In this document: one piece after another, positions 2-15,786 of the stretch
Position numbering within the stretch: the stretch's first letter is position 1
Layout of the letters: every line of letters starts with the position of its first letter
IMG/VR virus record: IMGVR_UViG_2061766007_000649
DNA from: an uncultured virus (IMG/VR IMGVR_UViG_2061766007_000649)
Taxonomy: Duplodnaviria > Heunggongvirae > Uroviricota > Caudoviricetes > Crassvirales
Direction: 5' to 3' (one strand)
Length of the DNA stretch: 20,000 bases
Translations under genes and position numbers: made by a program
Notes under the pieces: generated by a model
Told to the model about the DNA's origin: nothing
The model's input: only the letters and a program-made list of their open reading frames with translations
The model's database searches: none

Positions 2-2757
2 GCTTCTTATCTAAATCCTGAAGCTGCCAAAGATATTAAGTATCAGAATACAGTCAACTTGGTTAAAACTATAAAGGATATACTGGGAGTAATTGATTTA
101 AGTGAAAAAACCTCTAAGCCTACTGACTTAAATTCTTTCATTAGAAACTCTATTATAGAACTTAATCCTAGTATGACTGCTGACTTCAAGACAAAGGATG
201 TCAAGCTGCCTAAAAGGTTGAAAGAATTCAACTCAAAGAAGTTTAGTGCCTTAGGAACTCAGGCAGAAAAAGACTGGTATAATAGCAATGATATTGAAGG
301 TAATCTAAGTAAAGTTGCTGCTCTTAGAGCCCAAAAACAAGAGTATGTATTTATTAAGGATTCCTCTTTAATAAATGATGTTAGAAATGAGCTTGGAATT
401 GAAGAGTTCACAGATGACAATGTGCCAATCATTATAGCTGCCAGAGTCACCAAAGGTACAGAAGGAGCCATTCAATTAGAAGATGGAAACTATTACCTCT
501 ATGTTGGCTTATTACAGGACTCTAGAGTTTCTCCAGGACTGTATGATAGAAACGAACTTAATGCTTTAAGAAATGTAGCTATTCAACAAGAAGAAGATGG
601 CCCAATTAAACAGGACGGAAAGATTTATTTCTCTAAAGGAGGCACTATCAAGTATGCTAATAAATCAGAAGATGCCAAGACTGAAACTGATTCTTTAAAA
701 GAGTGGTTACTTGATAAGTATAAGGGAGATAAGGACGCTGCTAAAGCGGACTTTATAAAGCACTTTAGGGGGCTAGTCGCACATATTAATCCTGAAACCA
801 GAGAAGCGTCTGGTAGTGTTGAATGGAATGGTAAAAGAATAAATATATCATTTCCCTATAAAGGAACTCTCGGCAGAGACACCTACAAGTATGCCATCTA
901 TATGCTTGAGAAACCAGATGGTACTGTAGATCCTAAGATATTATTTGTTAGAGACTTAGATGAGTTTAGTTTTGATACAGAATTAGGAATATCCAATGTC
1001 TATGAGGCTCTTAGTGGTCCACTACTTACTGATAAGCAATATAAGGATGTTAAAGAGTTAGATTTCTTAAGGAGACCTGTAAATTACATTTACACCAGAC
1101 TTATTGCTCCTAATATTGAGGGACTTAGTTCCTCAAGAGCAAGCACTAAGCAAGAAGCTATAAATGCTATGCAGCATAGTCNNNNNNNNNNNNNNNNNNN
1201 NNNNNNNNNAAGCAATCAGCAAAGCACGGTCCAGATTTTGAGGTTAACTTTAGAATTAAGGATAATAATCTAGAATTTACTGCTTATCAAGAGACAGATG
1301 CTGGCAAAACTCAATATGGAGATATTCCTATAGTACTGTCTAGTCTTCCATTAGAAGATCTTAAATCTGCAGAAGCAGCCATTAGATTTGTTCAGAATGN
1401 NNNNNNNNNNNNNNNNNNNNNNNNNTCTGGAATTCTCAGAAGAGATGATAATGGATATCCATTAGTTAAGTTCCAAATCAATTATAGAGAGAGTGAGAGT
1501 GAGGCTAAGAATGTCTTTGATGAGGATAAAGTTGAGGATCTTCTTCTAGCAAATGCTTGGAAACTTANNNNNNNNNNNNNNNAAAGCATTGCTGTTAATC
1601 CTACTGTTCAGGGTGGACCTGCCCCTATAAAGAATACAGGCAATCCAGTTCAAGATGCTATTGATGCTATTACTCAGCCAGAGTTTATAGACGAGCATGA
1701 GGGTGAACACTTTGAGGTTGGTCCAAATGAAACTGAGGTTACTACATTCATTCATGGTACTGAGGAAGGAACAGACTTTGACAGTTTAACAAATCAGTTA
1801 GCTACTAACTTAGGTACATCTGTTGATAAACTATATAGAGTTTGGAGAAAAGAAAAAACTGTTGATTCTGTAACTCAATATATGAAATCTCATAATCTTG
1901 GAAGCTGGGTTGGTATAACAAGAATGTATATACCTATAATATGTCAAGAGTTTGAGAGAATTGATAAGTTCTTTGCTGACAAGAAAGAAACTCCAATACC
2001 TGTAGATCTGATATTCAAGGGCCCTATAAATGTTAATGGAAAGACCCATGATTTCATAGGAAAACCAGATATCATAACTGTAGATAAAGATGGTAAATAT
2101 CATATCTACGATATGAAGTCTTTCAGATATCAGGCTGGTGCAAGCAAGTCAGTTCCTGGATTTAAGAATACTACATTTATCTTAAATGGTATTAGAGGAT
2201 TTGACAGCAAATATTCGTACTGGCAACAGCAGATGAGTATCTACAGAATGCTTATCGAATCTAAATTAGGTAAAGGCACTGTAGTTCCAGAGTTTGGTGT
2301 TATTCCTGTGAGACTTGGATATGCTGTAGAAGGAAGTATTGATGACTATGTAGTTCCAGGAATTGGAGCACACAAGTTAACAGGAAAGGACGGAAAAGCA
2401 CTACATCTAGATTTCTCAAATGCTCCTTTGGAGATGTCTCCTAGTAAGCATCCAGAAAGGGTTACAAGATGTTACGATGATGCTATTAGAATTCCTGCCA
2501 TAGAGGATATCACAACAATTAATCCTACTGGATGGAAGCAGATGTCTAAAGCAGATGAATTAAAGAGCTCATTACAGCAAGTTAGACAAGACGGTGTTTC
2601 GGTTAAATCTGAACCTAAAGCTGAAGTTGAAGTTGTAGCTGCTCCAAGTGAGCAAAGAGAACTAAAGAGTATGAGCCCAGATGAAATTGCTCAAGAGCTA
2701 GCTGGTCCTGAGGTAGATGTTAGTATTGAAGATCTAATCAACGGAGCTTGCTCCTAA
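2..2757 (+). CDS. Giant putative virion cargo protein (5'-truncated by window) with C-terminal RecB/Cas4-like PD-(D/E)xK nuclease domain
   Basis: Frame 2 is open from base 2 (ASYLNPEAAK...) to the N-run at 1182-1209. Frame 1 is then open from 1210 (KQSAKHGPDFEV...SGILRRDDNGYP...SIAVNPTVQGG...) across two more gaps into ORF 1882..2757, ending in TAA. Nuclease motifs: EVTTFIH (1735-1755), LGTSVD (1810-1827), GKPD (2059-2070), YDMK (2107-2118), QMSIY (2230-2244). The cargo role is inferred from size and position next to the RNAP locus. Confidence 0.8.
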
Positions 2758-2802
2758 CAAAAAAAATAAAGGGAAGTGATTTTATCACTTCCCTTTTGTT
2801 TT
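2758..2802. terminator. Bidirectional rho-independent terminator between convergent giant genes
   Basis: Perfect inverted repeat AAAGGGAAGTGAT (2768-2780), TTT loop, ATCACTTCCCTTT (2784-2796). A T-tract follows on + (TTTTGTTTT) and an A-tract precedes it (T-tract on -). It fills the 46 bp between the stops at 2757 (+) and 2804 (-). Confidence 0.93.
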
Positions 2803-2803
2803 A

Positions 2804-5800
2804 TTATCTCTCTAAAGTAGGAAACTTTTGTTGCTGTTTCTGGTACCTATCTATTGATTCTTGTTTTCCATACCAGTCTATTAATTGTACCTTATCCATA
2901 CCTGGATCAGGGGTACTATCATAAGTAAATCCTATTTTAGTTAACCAGAATTTAGCCTCCTTTGCATTCCACTTTTCAAATCTCTCTCCTCCAGAAAGTA
3001 ATGCAGAAACACCGTCAAACGCAGTCTTTAAACCAGAGCTGAACATGATAGAACTGGAGTAGTCACCCATCTGAATTAGGTCGTTTGCAAATCTAACTGG
3101 ATTCATCAAAGTAATGCCCTCATCCCTTACACNNNNNNNNNNNNNNNNNNNNNNNNTCCTGTCATATAATACAAAGGATCCTTGGTATCATATATAGTAT
3201 TCTTGAGCTGATAAGACATTACTCTATCATTAAACTCATCAGTGCCAGGAGTAAAGGCTCCATAAGAATAATCATTAATATTCTTAGGATACTGGAGCTT
3301 CCTATTTGGACTACTCCAATCAGCTAATTGCTCAGTAGCCTTTACCTCATCCCTATAAATAGCACCCTTTGGAGCTAATATTCCGGGTTTGACTAATTTA
3401 TTCTCACCAAGTAACTCAGGATACATTAAACTTAGCCCAGTTACTGAAGTTTTAAGTGGTAGTTTACCCTTCTTCTCATATACCTTCTTACCAATTTGCT
3501 GTTCATTTCCCCTATAAAGACTTCTAGCAAGAATAGCAAGTAAAAAGTTAAGCCAGAATCCTATACACATATCTGTAACTTTCTTTAATTGGTCAGGATC
3601 CCAACCACATCTAGTCATATGCTCTACAAGATTCTTATTTTTAAGTGCAAATGGCCAAGCTAAAAGCTCAAGAGTGTACGCAGCATACTGTCCCCTAGAT
3701 ATATTATCGTATTTAACTAACTCTCTATTGCTAAATACACTCCATAGAGCAAGTCTATAGGCGTCAAGCATAGCGTGCTTATATTCTCCAGCAGAAATAG
3801 AGTAATTACTATAATAGTTCCTCTGAATGTAGCCAAACATATAGCCCTTAATCTTGCCAAGAGATTGAGTATAAACACCAGACTGGAATTCAGTGGCATT
3901 TAGCATTCCATAGACACCTTGAGAAGAGATAATATAGTCATTGATTCCATTGCAGAGCTTATATTCATCATCCTCAGTAAAGCTGATTTCCCTAATAAGT
4001 TCCTTCAAGACATTTTCAATCTCATCTGCAGTCTTATAACCACCAGAAGGGTTATATATATTTAGACTTTCCCCGCTATTATTATAGAAATCCTCAAGTC
4101 TTCTAATTGCCTCAGAATCCTGAACTCTCATTATCTCTACATCTGGATTCTCTTCAGCAAGGCTGTTGTTCTCTATGATATCTGCTAGCTCTTTTCTGGC
4201 GGCATCAAGTACTTTATATTTAGAAATATCTCTAGAATCCTTAAGAATACCATTTAATATATATGGATTACCATTATTATCAAACCCATAAACATCCGTA
4301 GCCTTAATTGCCTTACCTGTCTCGGCACTATATAGCCTCTTAGATCCTAACATAGAGTTATAAATAATACCAATTAAGGCATTATCAGTAAGACTATAGT
4401 TGGCCATAGCTACATTTACAAGAGTTTGAAGAGATAAGAATCCCTTTCTTCTAGTAATCTTAGCAGGAGTTCTATATGAATCCCATCTGTCAACCAGCTT
4501 CTGGTACCTGTCAAATCCCATAGTTCCACCAGAGAATATTCTAGCAATCTCACCACCAACATGTTTAGGATTAAGGTTTAAAAGGGTTTGTTTAACTATA
4601 TCTCTTAGTGTAACCCCCTCAACAACTCCCGCACCAACATCTTGAATGAAAATACGCATACCAGCAAGATAATTCTTTAAGCCCGCTATAGGAGAAATAC
4701 ATAGGGCTCTAATAGCACCAAAAGCACTGATAGCACCGGCTATACCCTTAAGATTTGTTGCTTTATTAAGGAATCTCCCTAACCAAGTTTCCTCACTAAA
4801 TCTCTTCTTTTGCTGACCTCTGTAGATAAGTCTTCTCATTATATTTTCTCTTTGTTGAGAAGACACTTCAGCGGCCTTACCTGCCTTACCGGTATTCTGT
4901 AAATCGGCTTNNNNNNNNNNNNNNNNNNNNNNNNNNNNNNNNNNNNNNNNNNNNNTAGCAACTTCCTGAGAGGTATGAAATCTACAGGCCATCTCCACAT
5001 ATTTATCTAATGACTTAAATAAATCTGTAGACAGGTCTTCCATATTATCAAGAAGATTAATGCCATAGAGGGCAAGCTTATCAAGTTGAAGATCATCCTC
5101 TTCTTCTTTAACTAGAGCCACTGATTCAGTAATAGGACTACCAAAGTTATTAGAAGTCACATCTTCACAGTATGCAGCCAGGTCAGAAGTGTCAGATAAA
5201 TCTTTCTTAATCTGCCTCTTATTCTTAATCCTGTTGATGAAGTTAGCCTTAAACTGAGGAATTCTTCCANNNNNNNNNNNNNNNNNNNNNNNNNNNNTCA
5301 TTGCTAGTCTGATCAGTAAGATAGTCAGAGTCAATATGGTTCTTAAACTCTAAGATAGAATTATAGAGCTCTCTAAACTCAGGGAACTGATTACAAAAAT
5401 CAATAAAATTCTGATTGATATATGTTTTAGATAATATTCTATTCTTCCTATCAGAGTAAGCAGAATCATAGAAGTCCTCCATTAGAGGATGATTATCCCT
5501 GTAATCCTGAAATACATTATATTTTTGGGCCTTGGACAGTCTCTTATATGAAGCCATATCAAAGGTATAGCTACCATCAGAAGTGGTTAGAGTACCATCT
5601 TCAAGTTCTTGTCTGAATTGGTCTTTAATTTCTTTAATTACAGCGCTCTTATCAGCCTCAAATTGACCCTTCTTAATATCTGTGATAAACCAGCCAGTCA
5701 GCTTTCCATCCTGAGTTCTCTCATATAGCATAGTTTCAGGATCATAGCCATACTGTTGAATTATCCTCCTAGTCTTAGGGTCAGAGATAAACTTTCTCCA

Positions 5801-7528
5801 TCTATTTTCTAAGTCAGTAAGGTCTGAGATCTCATTATTATATAAGATGGCTTCTTTAGCCTTTGACTTTCTAACTATATCATAGAAAATCTGAGTAGTA
5901 ACATCTCTCTGATTAGAATAAGTTCTGAAGAAAGTAAGTACTCTACTAGTATCACTAAGTCTATCTATATAGGAGGTAGCCAGTTTAGCAGCACTAATAT
6001 GCCTTGCCTCTCTGATTTTTGCAGGGGAGAATAAACCGGGAGAAACNNNNNNNNNNNNNNNNNNNNNNNNNNNNNNNNNNNNNNNNNNNNNNNNNNNNNN
6101 NNNNNNNNNNNNNNNNNNNNNTCTGAAATGAAATTAGATATTCCATCCAAGAAAGTTGTGTCTACAGAGGGCTCCCCGTCCTTAAAAGTTTTAAATGTTT
6201 CAGAGATATCACGAAGTGCCTTTGTTATCTCAGAGGCTTCAAATATAGTATTAATAGTATCTATATCAATGTCCTCCTCAAACATATCTTCAGAGAGAGC
6301 AGTAAGAGGCCCTGCTAGAATACCAAGTCTATCTAATAGACCCTGTACAGCACTTGAGGTAATTGCCAAGCTCTCCTCTTCACTTAAAGATACTAAATCT
6401 TTACCTTCTAATAGACTTCTACTAGAGAGCTTCTGATAGACATCTTTATAAGCAACCTTACTAAAATTATCAACTCTTGCACCCAGTCTTTTAATTCTGT
6501 CTAAGGTACCCTTTAATAATTTATTTTCCTCAGGGATAGAGCCTGCAGAGTATAGTGTAGTAGGACTCTTTAATGCCTCATGAACGTCAAAGTTCTCATC
6601 AAATAAGAACCCATGAGCCAAAGTCTCAGCCATAACTCTTGCCTTCTGCTTCNNNNNNNNNNNNNNNNNNNNNNNNNNNNNNNNNNNNNNNNNNNNNNNN
6701 NNNNNNNNNNNNNNNNNNNNNNNNNNNNNNNNNNNNNNNNNNNNNNNNNNNNNNNNNNNNNNNNNNNNNNNNNNNNNNNNNNNNNNNNNNNNNNNNNNNN
6801 NNNNNNNTAATAGTATTCTCATTAATAGCTCCTAATAGTCTATTAATAAACACAGAATCTTTACAGGCAATGGTGGCCAAGTGAGCACTCTCTTCTACTA
6901 GAACTTCCTCTATTGGGGCTCCTTTAGAGATCTCTATTAGATGATATAGGCCATCAAATGCAGTCTGAGCATTCTCGGTTGAAAACCTACCATTGTATTT
7001 ATTTTTACCAACAAAATCATAGGCAACCCCCAACTGTTTAAGTCTATCGGAGATAATTTTAATAATTCTATTGTTTTCAAGGTAGGTCTGCAAAGCAGCA
7101 CTTCTATTGGGAGTTCTTTGGGAAAGGGTAAATTTAACTGTGTTGCCCTCATTTGGCATAATCACTGGAACAAAATCATCTTTTAATTCCTCCTCAGCAT
7201 TAAACTTAGAAACCTTTGAGGAAACTTCCTCAGTGGGAAGAGAGGACTCTTCCCACTTTTTGGAAAGTTTCTGTTTAATTTCATCAGAAGTAAAAGTGAT
7301 TCCAGTAATATCCAAGAAGGCATGTGCATCAATTTGCCCGTTCTTGTCCAAAACAACATCAATAGCATCTACAGATGAGAGAAACCCCTCATCTGTAGCT
7401 ATCTTATATTGTTGCTCTGCCCATTCATAATTGCCAGATATCTTCCATAAATCCTCAAATAACTTACTTGGGACATCTTGGTTCTTAGAATTCTTAACGC
7501 ATGGAATTATAAAACAAGATTCACTCAT
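2804..7528 (-). CDS. Giant (~1570 aa) putative virion cargo/ejection protein with N-terminal degenerate zincin-like domain and hydrophobic segments
   Basis: ORF-track pieces 6626..7528, 5965..6822, 5249..5731, 3127..5334 and 2804..3109 change frame only at N-runs. The linking stretch 6046->5732 reads open (VSPGLFSPAKIREAR...IQQYGYDPETMLYER), as does 3130->3110 (VRDEGIT-LMNP). It starts 6 nt after the RNAP stop and ends TAATAA. It has EESAH at 6881-6895 and hydrophobic runs GIAGAISAFGAIRALCISPIAGL and CIGFWLNFLLAILA. Confidence 0.75.
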
Positions 7529-7534
7529 ATTTCA

Positions 7535-10500
7535 TTAATGTACTTTACATTGTGGTCTATCATCACTGCTAGTTAACTCTTCATCTGCAGTTCTTTCTTT
7601 GGCATCATCATATCCCTCTTCAGCAGTAGAACTGGGAGCCTCTTCAGCATCAGTAACTATCTCATCTGCTCCTAAAACTTTAGTAACTTGCGTTACTGCT
7701 GTATTATAGTTAAAGATGATTCCATTTCTCTGATTATATAATCCGGAGAGTTTGCTAGTTAATTCTTCTACATCTTCTCTAATATCATCGTTACTTACGG
7801 GGACATACATAATGGTTCTTTCAGATATTGGCTTATAGCTATCATAATCAATAGAGTACTTACCAAAGCTCTGTTTAGCCAATACATACATCATTCCGTC
7901 TACTCTAATAATAGGAACATAATAGAATCCAACAACTGCGTTGCCTTCCTTCTTAGCTTGGAGCTGAACTAAATCTGCAGAATTCCTGGGAGACACCTGT
8001 CCTTTCTTTGCTGAAATAAATATCAACTCTTTGATATTCGGATCCACCTCGGCATCCACAGTTCTGACCATCTTAGAGTCTTCATTGTGTGCCATAATGA
8101 ACTGGTATAACTTCTTTTTTGCTTCTAGCTTTTTAGAAGTATCCATTTCATCATAGTATATATCGTTGGTGTGTCTATCAAAGAAATCAGCATAGGTCAT
8201 ACCAGAAGTTTCGTCTACTATAATAGATTGAAGAACAGAAACTGGAGCAGCTTCCATCAGTCTATTATAAGCAGGATTTAAACCACTTCTGTAATACATA
8301 TACATATAGAGGCCTTTAGCAACTTCTGGATATTTTTGCATAAGAACTTCCCAGTCAGAAGTAATATTGAACTTCTCCCAAGAATCCCAAGAACTGGAGT
8401 AAGAAGGCTCAATTTCCAGTAAATCAGACCTTCCTTTTACCTCTCTAATACCTGAAACAAGAATGGAGGTAAGTTGGCTATCTCTAATCTGAGGATCTTC
8501 TGTTGCTTCATTCCACTGCATGATCCAGCCATTAGTTTCTTCAGAAGCTTCTTCTGGATTTTCAGCATAATTTGGTAACAAGTATCTCAGAGCATTACTT
8601 ACTGTCTGTCCCTCCATAATATAAGAAGGATTGAATTCACCAGGTAGGGATGAAAGAATTATTGTGGGTAAATCTTTATGTAATGCTTCCATTTGGTCTG
8701 CCCCAAGTCCCCAAGGAGCAATCAGCTTAGAAAGCACATCTCTGTAGCCCTGATAAAGAGGAGTGTTTAGAACAGTATATTTACTCATCATCATCATCAT
8801 AGCATTGTCAACAATGTTAGCAAGTATGTTTTCATAGACGAAAGGATGGTCTTTATACTTCTCTAATAACTCCTTACTCTTATTCTCATCAAGTAAATCT
8901 TCTAATGTTATATCACGAGTGATTGGATATGCACCTTCACTGGTCTGAATTGTTATTCTACTAAATTCTCTATTAGACTTATCTGCTGAACTAAGATAAT
9001 CCTCACATCTAGATTTAATAGTATTAGCAGAAGTATTTCTAGTTTGCTGAACATAGTTACTAAAGTCTTGTTTAGTAGCCATGATAGAATTAAACAATTG
9101 AGCAACAGCAATTTGAGACTGATTAGAAGGACTGGCATCTAATGAAAGATTCTTAGCAAGTTCTTCAGAACTTAACCACCTACCATCAATAGATGCCTTA
9201 GCACCAAACATAGCACTTGCACCTTGAACTCCCCTGTTAGACAGCATTCTAGTAAGTGCTCTTCTAACACTAGTTTCCCCAGTTCTCTTCATAAATCTAC
9301 ACATGTCCTTGATAACTGGCTGATTAAGTAGTAAACCAATATCTCTAGTAGTGTAGCCCAGTCTTGCAAGCATTGCTGCGGCGTCTGCAGTAATAGAGTT
9401 AAGATTCAAGAAATTCAACACAGGATCCTTAACAGCATCAACTGATGCAGCAAGTAACTCTGCTAAAGTCCTCTTAATCAACACTCCATTAACTGTAGTA
9501 TGAAGGAATGAAAGGCCAATATCATTAGTATCAATGCCCTCGGTAACTCCGTCCACCTCAGTGACTGCATCTTTAAGGCTTCCAAACAGAATTCTATTCT
9601 TTGGATCAGTGATCTTAAAGGTTTTTAGCCCCTTAGATATGAAGTTATTAACACTATCATTAGCAAATATACCAATTAAAGTACCAGCAATTTGATTCTG
9701 TTCTTTGAACACAATGGAAGTCATAGGTTCTGAATAGTCATATTCAACCTTTGCATCTTCCATGCTAGGAGCATCCTTAACAAACTCAGAGAAGGGCTCG
9801 ACTTCTGGATTCCATTTACCTGCAAACAGAAGTCTCATTAATTTTGCATCCTCTGAAGACTGAGCAAATCCACCAATAGTATATCTATCTTTAAGAGTAG
9901 ACTCATCTGAGAGAATGGCAACCATACAATCTATAATAACATTGTCAAGGTCACTTTGGGACATCTTCATTAGATCTTGAACATTCATATCATAGCTGAT
10001 ATGAGTACTCTGCATTTTGCCTTTTTGCAGCTTGTTCTTAGTCTCAGCAAAGACATCTTCCTTCTTTCCAAAGATAGTATCAAGGCCTGCAATATCCCAG
10101 TAAGTATGCCAATCTCTTCCTTCAGGACGACCCTCTTTCTCCCATTCTTGTCTGACAGCCTCTCTAACTCCGGGATTCTCTTCATAAATGGCCTTCCAAA
10201 CATCTTCATTGCTGATAGGTTCAGCCTTGAAGTTATGGCGCATCAAGAAGAGCTTATCAATATCAAAGTCAAAGCCAGCAATAGTAGTACATTCAGCAGG
10301 GAGTTTAATGGTATTAGCTGCAGTTTTAGCATTGCATTTAACTATCTTAAGATGGAACATAGAGTACTCCATCTCAGTAGGAATACGATATGCGATTACA
10401 TCAGTAATTCCAGGATAATCAATTTCAATCTTAGGAACTGCAGTATCATATCTGTCCTCAGTAATGGCTTTGCCTTCAGCATCTAAGAAATAGCCATTCT

Positions 10501-13500
10501 CATCACAGTAATCTTGAAACCTAAGAGGCACCATATTTCCATTTTCATCTGTGTAATGGAAGTCAAATGCCATCTCTGTTTGCATAGCAACTGGAATGCC
10601 ATTCTCAATAACTGCATGTAATCCAGTGTCAGTTAGGGCATCTTTACCATATCCCATAGAAGATGCCTGAACAATACTACCGCCGGAAATTAACTGTCTA
10701 ATAACGGTCTTCTTGAAGATGCTAATAACACTACTGTTGATATCACTAGCGTTGCTAGGCTCACCAAATGGAATTGTAGGATTCTCACCATCAACTAAAG
10801 TTAGTCTAGAGATCGCAGCAAGATTACCTCTACCATTATTGAGAAGATTGTAAATCATATCACTAATGGCTTGAGNNNNNNNNNNNNNNNNNNNNNNNCT
10901 TTTGGAAGGACTTCATATATTTGAGGGCATGAGCAGCACCATATATCTGAGCAAGCTTCTTACCTGAAATCTTTTCTCCAGAATTATTAGAGGTTTTGCC
11001 AATAGTATAATCCTTGTCCTGCTTAATAGCACCAGTTCCAATCTTTCTACCCTGAGTACCAACAATACTATTGCCATCAGTGTGATCAGGAATGTTGCTT
11101 TGGATCAAGTAATTCTCATTGGGAATAGTATGAACAATGTATTCAGTAGTATCCTCTCCAGTTCTATGAGCATCAAAGATGGATTTAACCGAAGTACCAC
11201 TCTCCCACTCTACAAACTTTCCAGAGTTCCGAGGATTAGCCCTTTGTTGACCTGCAGTCTGAGTACCATCATCAATGATTTTGCCATTCTCATCCATGCC
11301 AGGGAGTAAATCTCCGTTCTTATCAACATATTTACCATTGACCATTTTGTATTGAAGGTCCATCTCACCAAAGCAACCCTTCTTTAAACACTTATCAGAA
11401 GCGAGTAAATCAATCTTCCTATCAACCATTTCATCTCCAAGCTCTCTTAATTTAGAGCCCACAGGGAATAGTTCTGGAAGTAGGGGTACTTCAGCATATT
11501 TGAATTGGAATGCAACCTTAACATTAGCATCTCCGAAGGTTTCAATACCATCATTGATGGGCTTAATAGGCTGCATTTCAACCATTAAATCTTCAATCTC
11601 TTGAATCTGATCAGCAGTGAGAGACAATATTCTACCTTGCTTTCTGGNNNNNNNNNNNNNNNNNNNNNNNNNNNNNAGCTTCTTGACTCTCAGTCCAATA
11701 GGATAAACCAGCACTCAATAAAATCTTTCTATAAGACTCAAAAGAGCGATATGCCTGACCATCAGTAAGGGAATTACTAGAGAAATTCTTCAAATACTTC
11801 TCTGCTTCACGATCACCCCAAAGCTTACTAAAATAATTAAACAAAGCATCATAACTTGCCTTATCTAATCCAGTCTTAATATCTTTGAAGTAAACCACCT
11901 TACTAGTGAAATCATAGGTATTAGTCTTTGGATCGTAATCCCAAATATAATTACCATCAGCATCTCTAGCTTCCATAGAAAGAGCAGCACCATTAGTCAG
12001 AGTACCTTTATTTCTCTTCTGATGTTCCTCAACACCATTGAAGAATAAAGGATTAACCTGCATTAAATGTGCCTGATTATAAGCACCAAACTTATAATTG
12101 TAGTAGAAATCAAATAGAAGTTCATTCAATCTATCTTCCTTAGTGCTCTGATTGTTACCAAGATAGCTATTAAAGTAGATATAATCTCCCTTATCATTCT
12201 TATCCAGAAGACCCATCTCTTCTATATCTACCTTGAATGTCTTAAATCCCTCTTCAAGATACTCTTGAGCAGTCTGTATAAAGGCTTCCTTAGTATCTAC
12301 TCCTCCTCCTAATTNNNNNNNNNNNNNNNNNNNNNNNTTGCTTGCCTTTGTAAGGCATATTTAGGAACTGCAAAATACCAAACAGATTCTCATTAGATCT
12401 TCTGGTTTTATTTCCAGCAGCATCTCTGACTTGTCTACTAGTATATGCTTCCTTTCCATTAGCAGAGAATACTATGCCTCTTCTATTGAACTCCTTAATA
12501 GTATCTTGATTTGCCCTATCTGCTAAATAGAGATTGTACATACCATCAAGGACCTCAGGAAGATAGTAGTGAATGGTACTAATCTGCCTTAGTGCATTAG
12601 TGTCACCAGTAATGAAGGAAGGAATATAAGCGGGATCATCTCTATATACCCATTTACCATTAAAGTACATTCTAGGAGAGCCTAGAAGAACTTGTCTATT
12701 AGATCTATCTTTAGTATCTACCTGACTTTCATCAGTAATAAATCTAACATTTGCGTTCAGCCAAGTTCTGCCTCCCAGATATCCCATAATAAACATGAGC
12801 ATATGNNNNNNNNNNNNNNNNNNNNNNNNNNNNNNNNNNNNNNNNNNNNNNNNNNNNNNNNNNNNNNNNNNNNNNNNNNNNNNNNNNNNNNNNNNNNNNN
12901 NNNNNNNNNNNNNNNNNNNNNNNNNNNNNNNNNNNNNNNNNNNNNNNNAATATTTGTCCTCAAGATAACTACTTAAGGGAGTAACCTCTCTACCATCAAT
13001 AATAGCATCATAAAGACTATTAAGCTTCTTAGTTAAGATAGAATAAGGGGAATTTAATATCATTGAAGATATAGTACTACCAGCAAATGTAACTTGCCTT
13101 GTACTTTGAGATTTAGGAGTAGCCTGAATGAGGTTCATGATAGTGCCAATGGCTTTCTTCATATCCTCACTCTTACCCATCTTAGTCCTAAGACCAGCAA
13201 TATTCCTTGAGAAGATAGAATCTCCGGCAGAGAAATATACTTGAAGTGCTAAAGTTAAAGCATCCTGTCTAGAAACATCTGATAGAATCTCCCTAATAAT
13301 ATTAATGTCAATGGGAAAATTAAGCGCTTCCAGTATGGATGTTAGCTGCCCTTCTTGAGTAGCCAAAGCCGCCTTCTTAAAGATAGTGTTCTCAAACCCA
13401 CCGTCTTCATTTAAGAAGATAGTTTTAAATCTTCTATATAAAGCATCAAAGTCCTTATAAGATCTCAGGTTAGTAACCTTATAGCCAGTATCAGTATCTT

Positions 13501-14787
13501 TAACCTCAAATATAGAATTAGGAGAAACAACTCCNNNNNNNNNNNNNNNNNNNNNNTGGCCTCTCTGCTTCCCTTATTAAGGGGTGTAACAGAAACCTCA
13601 GTGGTTCCATCTGCCTGCCCAGCTAAATTAGCACTTCTGCAAATCTGCAGATACTTGTTAAAATCCTGGAAGAAAGTAGTAAGTAATCTTGGATTATTTA
13701 ATAGTTGCTGATATAGCATCCCAAGCTGTGCATCCTCAGAGAAATGAGACAGTTTATATAAAACATCCTGCTCACTTGTGATATCAGATAAAATATTAGA
13801 GAGATGCTTGGCTGTTACTGCTATATTTGAAAATAAGGGCAGTCCAAGAATAGGAGATTTGACAACTTCAGAATGGGACTCTGCCACACTGATGGAATTG
13901 CCAGCACTGTCTTGAATTACTTTATTTTCAACAACGGTTTTAGTCTGTGGAATTTGAATAAGAACTCTAGATACAATGGTAGAAAGAGAACCCTCAAGAG
14001 TTTGAGAGTCAAGGGCCTGTTGCCACCTGTCTTGCTGAGGCTCTTCCATGTCTCTGATAGAATCTGCAAGTTCATAGGAGACATTTGCGTTAGTATCTAA
14101 AGTAAAGTTAGCATGAAGCCGCACTCCCAAGGTCTTATTTAACACAGGAAGTGCTAGAACTATCATTGATGTTAGTCTGTCTCCACCAATTTCAGTCGGA
14201 AGAAACATATTTAACAGCAGGCGCCTAACCTCAGTTGCTTGAGCAACATCTTTGATTGTTCCATCTGGTTTAGGAGTAGCGCCGTTTATGATGTCATTAG
14301 CTTCTTTGAAAATGCTAATATAGGAATTCTTAACATGACTCATAAGGCCCTCAAAGACCTTAGTTCCGCCATGCTTAAATACTTCCTCTATATTAATGCC
14401 TTTTTCTGCAGCATAAGCTTCTGCTCTAGTTATAATTAACCGAGCAATTTCTTGAGTAATCTCCTCAATCTCCTCACCACTAAATACATCAGTAGCCTCC
14501 TTCATAGCAAGTGCTTCTGGACCGCCAAGTATCTTCTCAAGAGCTATTCTTTGCTTAGCTATATATTCAGAGTCTTTTTTCCTCTCTGCTCTCTGAGTAG
14601 AGATTTTATTGTAAATCTCATCTAATTGCTCATCTGTATAGATCTCATCTGGAGAAATTCTCTTTTCTCCATTAGGAGCATACATATTGTATGTATTAAT
14701 GTATGCGTTGAGCACATTTTGGGGAACATTGAATCTCTTAGCTAAAGAAGAACAATTAGGAAAGTGTGTACAATATGATTTAGCCAT
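7535..14787 (-). CDS. Single-chain virion RNA polymerase (~2410 aa), crAss-like / phi14:2 gp66 type, double-psi beta-barrel
   Basis: Catalytic AGFDFDIDK (DFDID at 10256-10270), upstream YRIPTE (RIP at 10379-10387), beta-like TDGQAY (TDGQ at 11755-11766) and conserved-Lys segment QPIKP...FKYAEVPLLP. Five ORF-track pieces join, with frame changes only at N-runs. Linkers read open: VVSPNSIFEV...FKKAALATQE, LGGGVDTKE...IEEMGLL and QAISDMIYN. Confidence 0.92.
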
Positions 14788-14934: not shown

Positions 14935-15786
14935 CTAAAGGGAAATTCCCTTCGCTTTAAACTTATCATGCAGCATAGTAGCTACATTTAACATATCAAG
15001 ATGGGGCTTACCTGTAGTACCTCTATACCTTAAATCAAAGAAGTGCTTCCAAGCATCTTCAAAGCCACACATACAGACTTCTGTTTTAAGGGCATTAGGA
15101 AGAACCTGTCTTGCCTGCTGAGAAGTCCAACCTTCTTTGAGCAAGGCTAAGTATATGGTCTCTGCTTGTTGGCATGCCATAATAAACATAGTATCTGCTT
15201 GAGAAATCTCCCGTGCATCAGATTCTCCCATAGTAAAATCTGTCCAACTTGGTTGAATGAATGTAAGTTCATTACCAAATTTGTCTTTAGAATAATTGCA
15301 ATATCTTGTAGACTCTTGACAGAAGCTGAAGGCTCTATGCCTTACAAGCTCGTGGCTTACACCTCTGTCTGTAATAAATCTAGCACAATATCTTTTTAAA
15401 TGTGCAGGCGTGGGATCACATATAGATAGCTCTACTATTTCCATTGCAACATACCTTTCTATAATGTGCCTGAAGTTGGTAGTAATATAAAAGAACTCTC
15501 CATCACAATTGACATCAACCCAAGGCAAGTCTTCTGGGAACATGTACTCCCATTCATATCTGTCTTCCCCCCAGGCATCTACTGGGATTTTAAGATATAC
15601 AGTACCAAATTCAAGTACCGCATAATGTCCTTCATTAATTCTGGCATCAACAAATTTCTTTGCTTCTTCACCACCCTTAACTTCAGACTTATATGATGTC
15701 TTGCCGCACAGTTCAATCATATCGTAGATTCCCTGTAAACCGGGGCCTTGCTCTAGTATTTCTACTGAAGGTTTAATCAGTCTCAT
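14935..15786 (-). CDS. thyX: FAD-dependent thymidylate synthase
   Basis: Signature DRGVSHELVRHRAFSFCQESTRY (RHR-x7-S), N-terminal GHYAVLEF, C-terminal ARQVLPNALKTE and W..FF.LR....H. Confidence 0.96.
   Translation of the reverse strand: MRLIKPSVEILEQGPGLQGIYDMIELCGKTSYKSEVKGGEEAKKFVDARINEGHYAVLEFGTVYLKIPVDAWGEDRYEWEYMFPEDLPWVDVNCDGEFFYITTNFRHIIERYVAMEIVELSICDPTPAHLKRYCARFITDRGVSHELVRHRAFSFCQESTRYCNYSKDKFGNELTFIQPSWTDFTMGESDAREISQADTMFIMACQQAETIYLALLKEGWTSQQARQVLPNALKTEVCMCGFEDAWKHFFDLRYRGTTGKPHLDMLNVATMLHDKFKAKGISL

Follow-up and report, generated by a model that had tools for sequence, protein, structure and literature searches.

The present study concerns a 20,000-nt stretch of DNA from an uncultured crAss-like virus (IMG/VR record IMGVR_UViG_2061766007_000649), hereafter called the window, and in particular its giant-gene region at 2..14787, a crAss-like RNA-polymerase cargo block. 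The block consists of three giant genes encoding a protein named giant-3, a virion RNA polymerase (RNAP), and a protein named giant-2. When open reading frames (ORFs) were called with table 11, region 2-14787 appeared as numerous mid-sized ORFs, and the three giant genes looked broken up because N runs interrupt them and shift the frame. These runs occur in all three genes and are not frame-preserving; the coding frame shifts across most of them, leaving about 14 separate ORF pieces. Stop-codon recoding was rejected as the cause of the fragmentation, since reading TAG, TGA, or TAA as a residue left the pieces unjoined and the breaks fell at the N runs. The giant-3 gene is convergent to the RNAP and giant-2 genes, and the features of the block are as follows:

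2..2757, + strand: C-terminal part of giant-3, based on ORF pieces; the gene extends beyond the window start and contains N runs; the proposed opening link of a chain.
2668..2754, + strand: acidic C-terminal tail of giant-3, ending INGACS, with the putative donor cysteine (Cys) codon at 2749-2751.
2804..7528, - strand: giant-2, about 1,600 aa, with N runs within; the proposed final link of a chain.
7499..7528, - strand: giant-2 N-terminus MSESCFIIPC, with the putative acceptor Cys5 at 7516-7514 and a second Cys, Cys10, at 7501-7499.
7535..14787, - strand: virion-type RNAP, about 2,420-2,440 aa, with N runs within.
7538..7660, - strand: acidic C-terminal tail of the RNAP, ending DDRPQCKVH, with the putative donor Cys codon at 7549-7547.
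10256..10270, - strand: DFDID catalytic motif of the RNAP, read from the window sequence.
14752..14787, - strand: RNAP N-terminus MAKSYCTHFPNC, with the putative acceptor Cys6 at 14772-14770 and the lineage-specific Cys12 at 14754-14752.

An earlier reading of this stretch (the original prediction) had proposed that Cys motifs at the ends of the three proteins link them in a defined order or form a common loading signal. All the terminal sequences that it quoted, as well as the Cys-less end of giant-2, were present in the window. Giant-3 ends with AGPEVDVSIEDLINGACS, followed by a stop codon at 2755-2757. The RNAP begins with MAKSYCTHFPNC and ends with SSDDRPQCKVH, and giant-2 begins with MSESCFIIPC and ends with KFPTLER, without Cys. 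The starts of the RNAP and giant-2 are certain because each N-terminal Met codon is one codon past an in-frame stop. The window gene of giant-3 lacks its start, and its N-terminus was taken from the records of relatives; in this lineage giant-3 starts with MPLPGIRL and contains no Cys in its first 677-717 residues. The motif said to be shared by the RNAP and giant-2 N-ends, S-x(0-1)-C-x3-P-x(0-1)-C, was indeed found at both, although its second Cys, which gives C-x5-C in the RNAP and C-x4-C in giant-2, proved to be a feature of the window's lineage.

We then compared the Cys content of the readable residues. Giant-3 contained 3 Cys in 783 residues (0.38%), with 0 in its first 393, the RNAP contained 12 in 2,334 (0.51%), and giant-2 contained 10 in 1,461 (0.68%), whereas the twelve non-giant ORFs of the window contained 24 in 1,144 (2.10%). 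These frequencies indicated that the giants of the window were three- to five-fold depleted in Cys. The suggestion that Cys is otherwise sparse therefore held without exception for the readable beginning of giant-3, but for the giants as a whole the sparsity was only relative. A hand calculation from the window frequencies gave ~7e-6 for the presence of a Cys within 10 residues at all four ends.

The identity of the three proteins was established by comparison with known phages. In a tblastn search, the last 1,112 residues of the RNAP matched the "putative RNA polymerase" of crAss-like phages, with 31.3% identity over 83% of the query for DAC15 (E 5e-106) and 25.9% identity for crAss001 (E 1e-33); sixty records matched, every one below 60% identity. 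The RNAP core profile (alignment A1) matched the structure of the phi14:2 virion RNA polymerase, PDB 6VR4 (E 1.4e-30), and D202, F203, D204, and D206 were invariant in this alignment. The catalytic motif is named in the phi14:2 preprint (10.1101/2020.03.07.982082), and the window RNAP showed this mark of the phi14:2 gp66-type Crassvirales virion RNA polymerase, a DFDxD motif within a two-barrel core. The neighbourhoods in DAC15, crAss001, and phi14:2, together with jackhmmer domain maps, placed the RNAP in a block with two more giant genes. Judged from these sequence comparisons, the window RNAP is the orthologue of crAss001 gp50 and phi14:2 gp66, giant-2 is assigned as the orthologue of crAss001 gp49 and phi14:2 g065, and giant-3 is likewise assigned to crAss001 gp47 and phi14:2 g067. 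The giant-3 relatives L002 and L003 were mapped onto crAss001 gp47 by jackhmmer, and full-length giant-3 in relatives measured about 2,370-2,400 aa.

Searches of Pfam and PHROGs with the window pieces and the full-length relatives returned no family for the giants, apart from crAss001 gp47 and gp49. Residues 1703-1862 of gp47 matched PHROG 298, an exonuclease (E 1e-6), which gave some basis to the earlier label of giant-3 as a nuclease protein, and gp49 matched a virion structural PHROG. The nuclease-like domain, located at about 1710-1880 of crAss001 gp47, changes its host protein between lineages: it was observed in giant-2 in L045 (15825-16400), at the polymerase C-end in L079 (about 12690-13220), and inside the giant-2 part in L082 (about 13545-14020). 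The label of giant-2 as a membrane protein was weakened, as at most one marginal hydrophobic segment was detected in it. Residues 212-216 of giant-2 (window 6881-6895, - strand) read EESAH and correspond to a conserved E-E-x-x-H, in which the E, E, and H were kept in 35, 32, and 32 of 42 giant-2 N-domains, respectively. This motif may be linked to the zincin-like protease domain that is reported for phi14:2 gp65 orthologues in the preprint (10.1101/2020.03.07.982082).

To evaluate the conservation of the terminal Cys, we assembled a set of related loci. The polymerase core profile retrieved 433 related stretches, the best 80 of which were kept; DAC15 and crAss001 were added, and the set amounted to 85 loci in total. 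ORFs of at least 400 aa were mapped onto crAss001 gp50, gp49, and gp47 with jackhmmer, and the 84 loci with a polymerase core clustered into 53, 38, 28, and 16 groups at 90, 70, 50, and 40% identity, respectively. Three of the 85 loci were read with TAG as Gln; the giant genes of L016, L022, and L032 were open only with TAG as a residue (table 15) and lay in pieces under table 11. The end counts excluded ends running off the contig and the internal ends of six half-ORFs from three interrupted polymerase genes (L009, L022, and L041). Inserts of about 0.9-1.0 kb, which are possible introns or homing-endonuclease inserts, were found in the polymerase genes of L022 (10672-11534) and L041 (8561-9608), and the gene of L009 was broken by a frame change at about 11851-11863; the internal ends of these three genes were without Cys. 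L069 (4,209 aa) and L081 (4,342 aa) were classed as fusions of giant-3 with the polymerase by their length and giant-3-like N-termini, and jackhmmer found no giant-3 domain in them. The counts of ends with a Cys within 10 residues are given below, with the number expected from uniform Cys placement and the number of lineages (groups at 50% identity) in which all members comply:

Unfused RNAP N-end: 72/72; expected 1.93; lineages 19/19.
RNAP C-end: 82/82; expected 2.09; lineages 28/28.
Giant-2 N-end: 76/78; expected 1.50; lineages 25/27.
Giant-3 C-end: 57/59; expected 0.49; lineages 14/15.
Giant-2 C-end: 0/78; expected 1.47; lineages 0/28.
Giant-3 or fused N-end: 1/10; expected 0.03; lineages 1/10.

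These results indicated that the four ends named in the original prediction were strongly enriched in Cys across the Crassvirales RNAP loci relative to the uniform expectation of 0.49-2.09, and that the presumed outer ends of the chain, the giant-2 C-end (as the prediction had stated) and the giant-3 N-end, were Cys-less. The misses could be explained individually; that of L023 is due to a miscalled start, with MAKKC located 16 residues on, and those of L045, L006, and L007 are described below. Taken together, all giants contained 860 Cys in 436,346 residues (0.197%), and 299 of the 860 were within 10 residues of an end. Once the ends were removed, the frequency was 0.129%, compared with 1.85% in 422 flanking ORFs; thus in the relatives, as in the window, Cys was much rarer in the giants than in the other proteins of the phage. 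In three IMG/VR relatives with 67-79% identity, every end motif covered by their contigs was kept, and the giant-3 C-terminal Cys was kept in L002 and L003.

We further examined the ends by alignment, the mean column identity of the end alignments being 13-22%. Cys was the sole invariant column at the giant-2 N-end (42 sequences, 22% mean identity; Cys5 in the window), at the RNAP C-end (44 sequences), and at the RNAP N-end (36 sequences; Cys6 in the window). No column was invariant at the giant-3 C-end, for which 24 sequences were aligned, L006 and L007 among them. The N-terminal Cys was located at residue 3 to 7, and the C-terminal Cys was followed by 0 to 9 residues. An independent sample came from a search in which the profile of the giant-2 N-domain was run against 1.84 billion representatives; at E 0.001 or better, it gave 1,307 proteins. 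Among the best 150 of these 1,307, 149 started with Met, and in 146 of the 149 a Cys fell within the first 10 residues; the other three had starts that looked miscalled or truncated. In the same best 150, none of the 121 proteins of at least 1,200 aa had a Cys in the last 10 residues.

The charge of the ends was also examined. The last 30 residues were net negative in 21/28 lineages at the RNAP C-end and in 13/14 at the giant-3 C-end, which agreed with the acidic tether proposed for the donor tails. The first 30 residues of giant-2 were net positive in 20/26 lineages, and those of the RNAP were neutral. A Pro at Cys+4 was present in 18/26 lineages of giant-2 and in 2/19 of the polymerase. Two Cys within the terminal 15 residues were rare: at the N-ends they were found in 1/21 lineages for the RNAP, namely the window's own, and in 4/27 for giant-2, and at the C-ends in 2/28 for the RNAP and 2/15 for giant-3. 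According to these sequence counts, the double Cys at both N-ends is special to the window's lineage.

Gene fusion and splitting provided a further line of evidence. Fusions of giant-3 with the RNAP were found in L045, L067, L078, and L079, as well as in L069 and L081 by length and N-terminus. These fusions had no Cys at the N-end or at the junction but kept the C-terminal Cys, and the giant-2 that accompanies them kept its N-terminal Cys, which was often its only one. In L082, giant-3, the RNAP, and giant-2 were joined in that order in one protein of 5,542 residues with zero Cys. An extra split was observed in L073, in which an upstream ORF ended with KKC and the next giant began with MAC. 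Where all three genes lay on one strand (L052, L076, L080, L085, and phi14:2), their order was giant-3, polymerase, giant-2. The Cys-bearing C-ends equalled the Cys-bearing N-ends in number, and both followed the number of junctions (2+2, 1+1, and 0+0). The fusions, the same-strand gene orders, and the absence of Cys at fused junctions supported the predicted succession of donor and acceptor ends in the order giant-3, RNAP, giant-2. The terminal pattern was thus conserved and polar, and it co-varied with gene fusion and splitting.

An artefact of gene junctions or translational coupling was also considered and rejected. In three genomes in which giant-2 was remote from the RNAP gene, it still had Cys7 or Cys10; these unlinked genes, together with the convergent giant-3, indicated that the pattern was not an effect of the gene junction. 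In the records L090-L092 (behind L028, L036, and L026), which belong to one lineage, giant-2 was located tens of kilobases from the polymerase gene, and in L092 it adjoined an ORF whose start resembles the giant-3 N-terminus.

The same arrangement was observed in cultured relatives, most cleanly in phi14:2. In this phage, g067 (1,797 aa) contains one Cys, its last residue, gp66 (2,180 aa) contains only Cys3 and Cys2179, and g065 (1,421 aa) contains only Cys3; there are thus four Cys in 5,398 residues, all of which are at the protein ends that would meet. The terminal-Cys pattern of crAss001 and DAC15 was the same. The window block resembles phi14:2 g067-g066-g065 and crAss001 gp47, gp50, and gp49 in its orthologous genes and matching neighbourhood, whereas its lineage is distant from both phages and differs in having more internal Cys and two Cys per N-end. 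The crAss001 proteins gp47, gp50, and gp49 are reported to have been detected in virions by mass spectrometry, and crAss001 particles are described as containing several structural disulfides (PMC10172136). For phi14:2, the record notes virion presence, and the preprint text reports delivery of the polymerase into the host (10.1101/2020.03.07.982082). By analogy with crAss001 and phi14:2, we infer that the cargo of the window's phage would be packed in the particle and injected.

Ejected phage proteins are often strongly depleted in Cys. N4-like phages resemble crAss-like phages in that their giant virion RNA polymerases and the ejection proteins that accompany these are poor in Cys; for DEV gp71-gp73 and N4 gp50, the published account describes ejected proteins that are nearly Cys-free and invokes passage through the periplasm (PMC11445570). 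However, the N4-like proteins are without Cys altogether, whereas the crAss giants retain particular Cys at their termini.

A closer precedent was found in cyanophage A4 (Anabaena phage A-4L). The cryo-electron microscopy structure of the pre-ejectosome of this phage (PNAS 2025, PMC12002296) is reported to contain a disulfide between gp27 Cys1715 and gp26 Cys5; gp27 docks in gp26 by its C-terminal helix, which this bond locks. The statement that no mechanism of this kind had been described was therefore too strong. In the A-4L record, gp27 has 1,717 aa with Cys1715 as its sole Cys, and gp26 has 1,114 aa, starts with MSKHC, and has Cys5 as its sole Cys. As in crAss-like phages, adjacent genes, arranged in the order of the chain, code for two large ejection proteins, with a Cys near the C-end of the upstream protein and at position 5 of the downstream one; the crAss counterparts are MSKxC at the N-end and C-x(0-9) at the C-end. 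The signature of a near-sole Cys at the upstream C-end and in the first downstream residues was present at the ends in the window and in the relatives. Unlike the crAss block, A4 belongs to another phage family, has no RNA polymerase in its chain, and has one link instead of two. The A4 paper gives the gp27-gp26 bond as a structural detail, without a general rule (PMC12002296). A literature search, supplements aside, found no published account of these Cys in crAss-like phages; the crAss001 atlas contains no instance of "cysteine", and the phi14:2 preprint contains none of either "cysteine" or "disulfide".

Considering the sequence pattern together with the A4 analogy, we regard it as probable that the terminal Cys link giant-3, the RNAP, and giant-2 head to tail through disulfides into one thread. 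In such a mechanism, the C-terminal tail of giant-3 would dock on the polymerase N-terminus, and the C-terminal tail of the polymerase would dock on the giant-2 N-terminus. Each contact would then be locked by a disulfide within the particle, formed after assembly, so that the three proteins would behave as a single, almost linear thread. Such a thread, about 6,400 residues long, would substitute for the single polyprotein encoded by some relatives. It could secure one-to-one packing, or it could feed each protein into the narrow tail channel after the previous one, and reduction in the host cytoplasm would free the three proteins. We infer the disulfide bond in crAss-like phages, its timing, and its role in ejection from the patterns described above. 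A fused polyprotein form of the crAss RNAP block is known from the text of the phi14:2 preprint (10.1101/2020.03.07.982082). The single polyprotein of L082 matches the split block in its domains and their order, but its continuity is due to peptide bonds, with cleavage presumed, whereas that of the split forms would be due to the proposed disulfides.

Several observations weigh against a head-to-tail disulfide thread. The host cytoplasm is reducing, and therefore no disulfide could form before assembly or release. In L045, giant-2 is split over two frames, and the second piece starts without Cys, while the first piece starts with MGNC. The final Cys of giant-3 is 28 residues from the end in L006 and 24 in L007, in a conserved TQCG. 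The regions of this displaced donor Cys are L006 18643-18730 and L007 10788-10870, and together the two loci are the outgroup closest to the window's lineage. The ends are also less exclusive in their Cys in the window's lineage than elsewhere, because internal Cys are retained (10-16 in the RNAP and 10-13 in giant-2). The A4 precedent is an analogy, because no homology to the crAss end modules was detectable: hhalign of the crAss giant-2 N-domain (alignment A2) against the N-terminal 240 aa of A-4L gp26 gave no homology (probability 0.4%). Finally, an alternative pairing, in which the RNAP N-end joins the RNAP C-end and the giant-3 C-end joins the giant-2 N-end, fits the bare counts equally well and is disfavoured only because of the fusion pattern.

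A second question is what the additional acceptor Cys in the window's lineage might do. It could be a resolving Cys that attacks the link, forms a loop within its own protein, and frees the partner without a host reductase; this attack would occur upon unfolding of the thread or its arrival in the cytoplasm. The link would then be a self-releasing redox latch that could also time the activation of a self-inhibited polymerase. We consider this unlikely.

Among the alternatives to the disulfide thread, the terminal Cys might tie each giant to other parts of the particle, such as the portal, the tail ring, or small cargo proteins, or might form a common loading signal, instead of joining giant to giant. 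The tail and portal-vertex proteins of crAss001 are described as disulfide-rich (PMC10172136), which would suit such contacts. In the window's lineage, however, the two ORFs that precede giant-3 are without Cys, and the small proteins at this position were Cys-free in DAC15 as well. A common signal would also fit the similarity of the two N-ends. In the hhalign comparison of the two acceptor N-ends (alignments A2 and A4), a probability of 21% was obtained over the first 22 columns only, which is consistent with a short common motif; the comparison of the donor tails (alignments A3 and A5) revealed no similarity. The model of the giant-2 N-domain (240 aa) had a mean predicted local distance difference test (pLDDT) score of 73. 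Foldseek found no match to it in the PDB at E 0.001 or better, and its profile gave no match better than E 0.1 against PDB sequences. In a wide fold search, its top match was phi14:2 gp66 residues 2-95, with a modest Z of 6.0, a root-mean-square deviation of 3.4, and 71 aligned residues, which again could reflect a signal common to both proteins. The model of the RNAP N-terminus (130 aa, mean pLDDT 79) gave no match at Z 5 in the fold search, and gp66 was absent among the 50 matches listed. In the monomer models, giant-2 Cys5 and RNAP Cys6 were located in N-terminal coils ahead of the folded part. From these models, a common fold or homology of the two acceptor modules is an unproven candidate. 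Contacts with other parts or a loading signal leave unexplained why the numbers of donors and acceptors match the junctions and why a pair is lost exactly at fusions and a new pair appears at the extra split. We therefore consider this explanation unlikely.

Another explanation is that the terminal Cys bridge a metal ion in a trans zinc site, without a disulfide; the same ends would be linked, and assembly would be possible in the reducing cytoplasm, as a metal site requires no oxidant. In the window, each junction offers three thiols (the giant-3 Cys with RNAP Cys6 and Cys12, and the RNAP C-terminal Cys with giant-2 Cys5 and Cys10), and His residues are located near the Cys (CTHFPNC and QCKVH). 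Nevertheless, in most lineages an end has a single Cys, which provides too few ligands, and the His near the window's Cys were not kept in L002 and L003, so that the shared Zn site of the original prediction lost ground against relatives with 67-79% identity. Four conserved metal ligands from the joined ends, as in a zinc hook, were not found, and the A4 pair with the same signature is reported to be a disulfide (PMC12002296). A trans zinc site is possible in the window's lineage but cannot be the general mechanism, and as an account of the terminal Cys we judge it quite improbable.

It is very improbable that the terminal Cys act without any link between proteins, as a metalloprotease cysteine switch, as an end modification, or by pairing of the RNAP's own ends: the zincin-like protease domain reported in the preprint text for phi14:2 gp65 orthologues (10.1101/2020.03.07.982082), the conserved E-E-x-x-H of giant-2, and the Cys at both ends of the RNAP speak for it, but one catalytic metal is insufficient for four ends on three proteins, the all-fused L082 protein has no need of Cys, and in the giant-3/RNAP fusions the Cys of the giant-3 C-end and that of the RNAP N-end disappear jointly while the pair at the RNAP C-end and giant-2 N-end stays, so that pairing of neighbours fits and self-pairing of the RNAP does not.

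The proposed head-to-tail disulfide thread would account for how a crAss cargo of about 700 kDa is ordered and delivered through a narrow tail. In the crAss001 atlas, the cargo order is described only as "likely to be controlled" by packing and protein interactions (PMC10172136). If true, a pseudo-polyprotein stapled by disulfides would explain the free fusion and splitting of these genes in evolution, the avoidance of Cys elsewhere in the giants, and the release of the polymerase in the cytoplasm only. The same signature in an unrelated cyanophage suggests that podophages whose ejection proteins are giant may generally have arrived at this solution. For annotators, the terminal-Cys rule offers a simple sequence guide to chain partners and their order.

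One further gene was identified next to the block:

14935-15786, - strand: ThyX (flavin-dependent thymidylate synthase), Pfam Thy1, E 4.7e-24, directly upstream of the RNAP gene.

The thymidylate synthase gene of crAss001 is likewise located upstream of the polymerase gene, but a few genes off.

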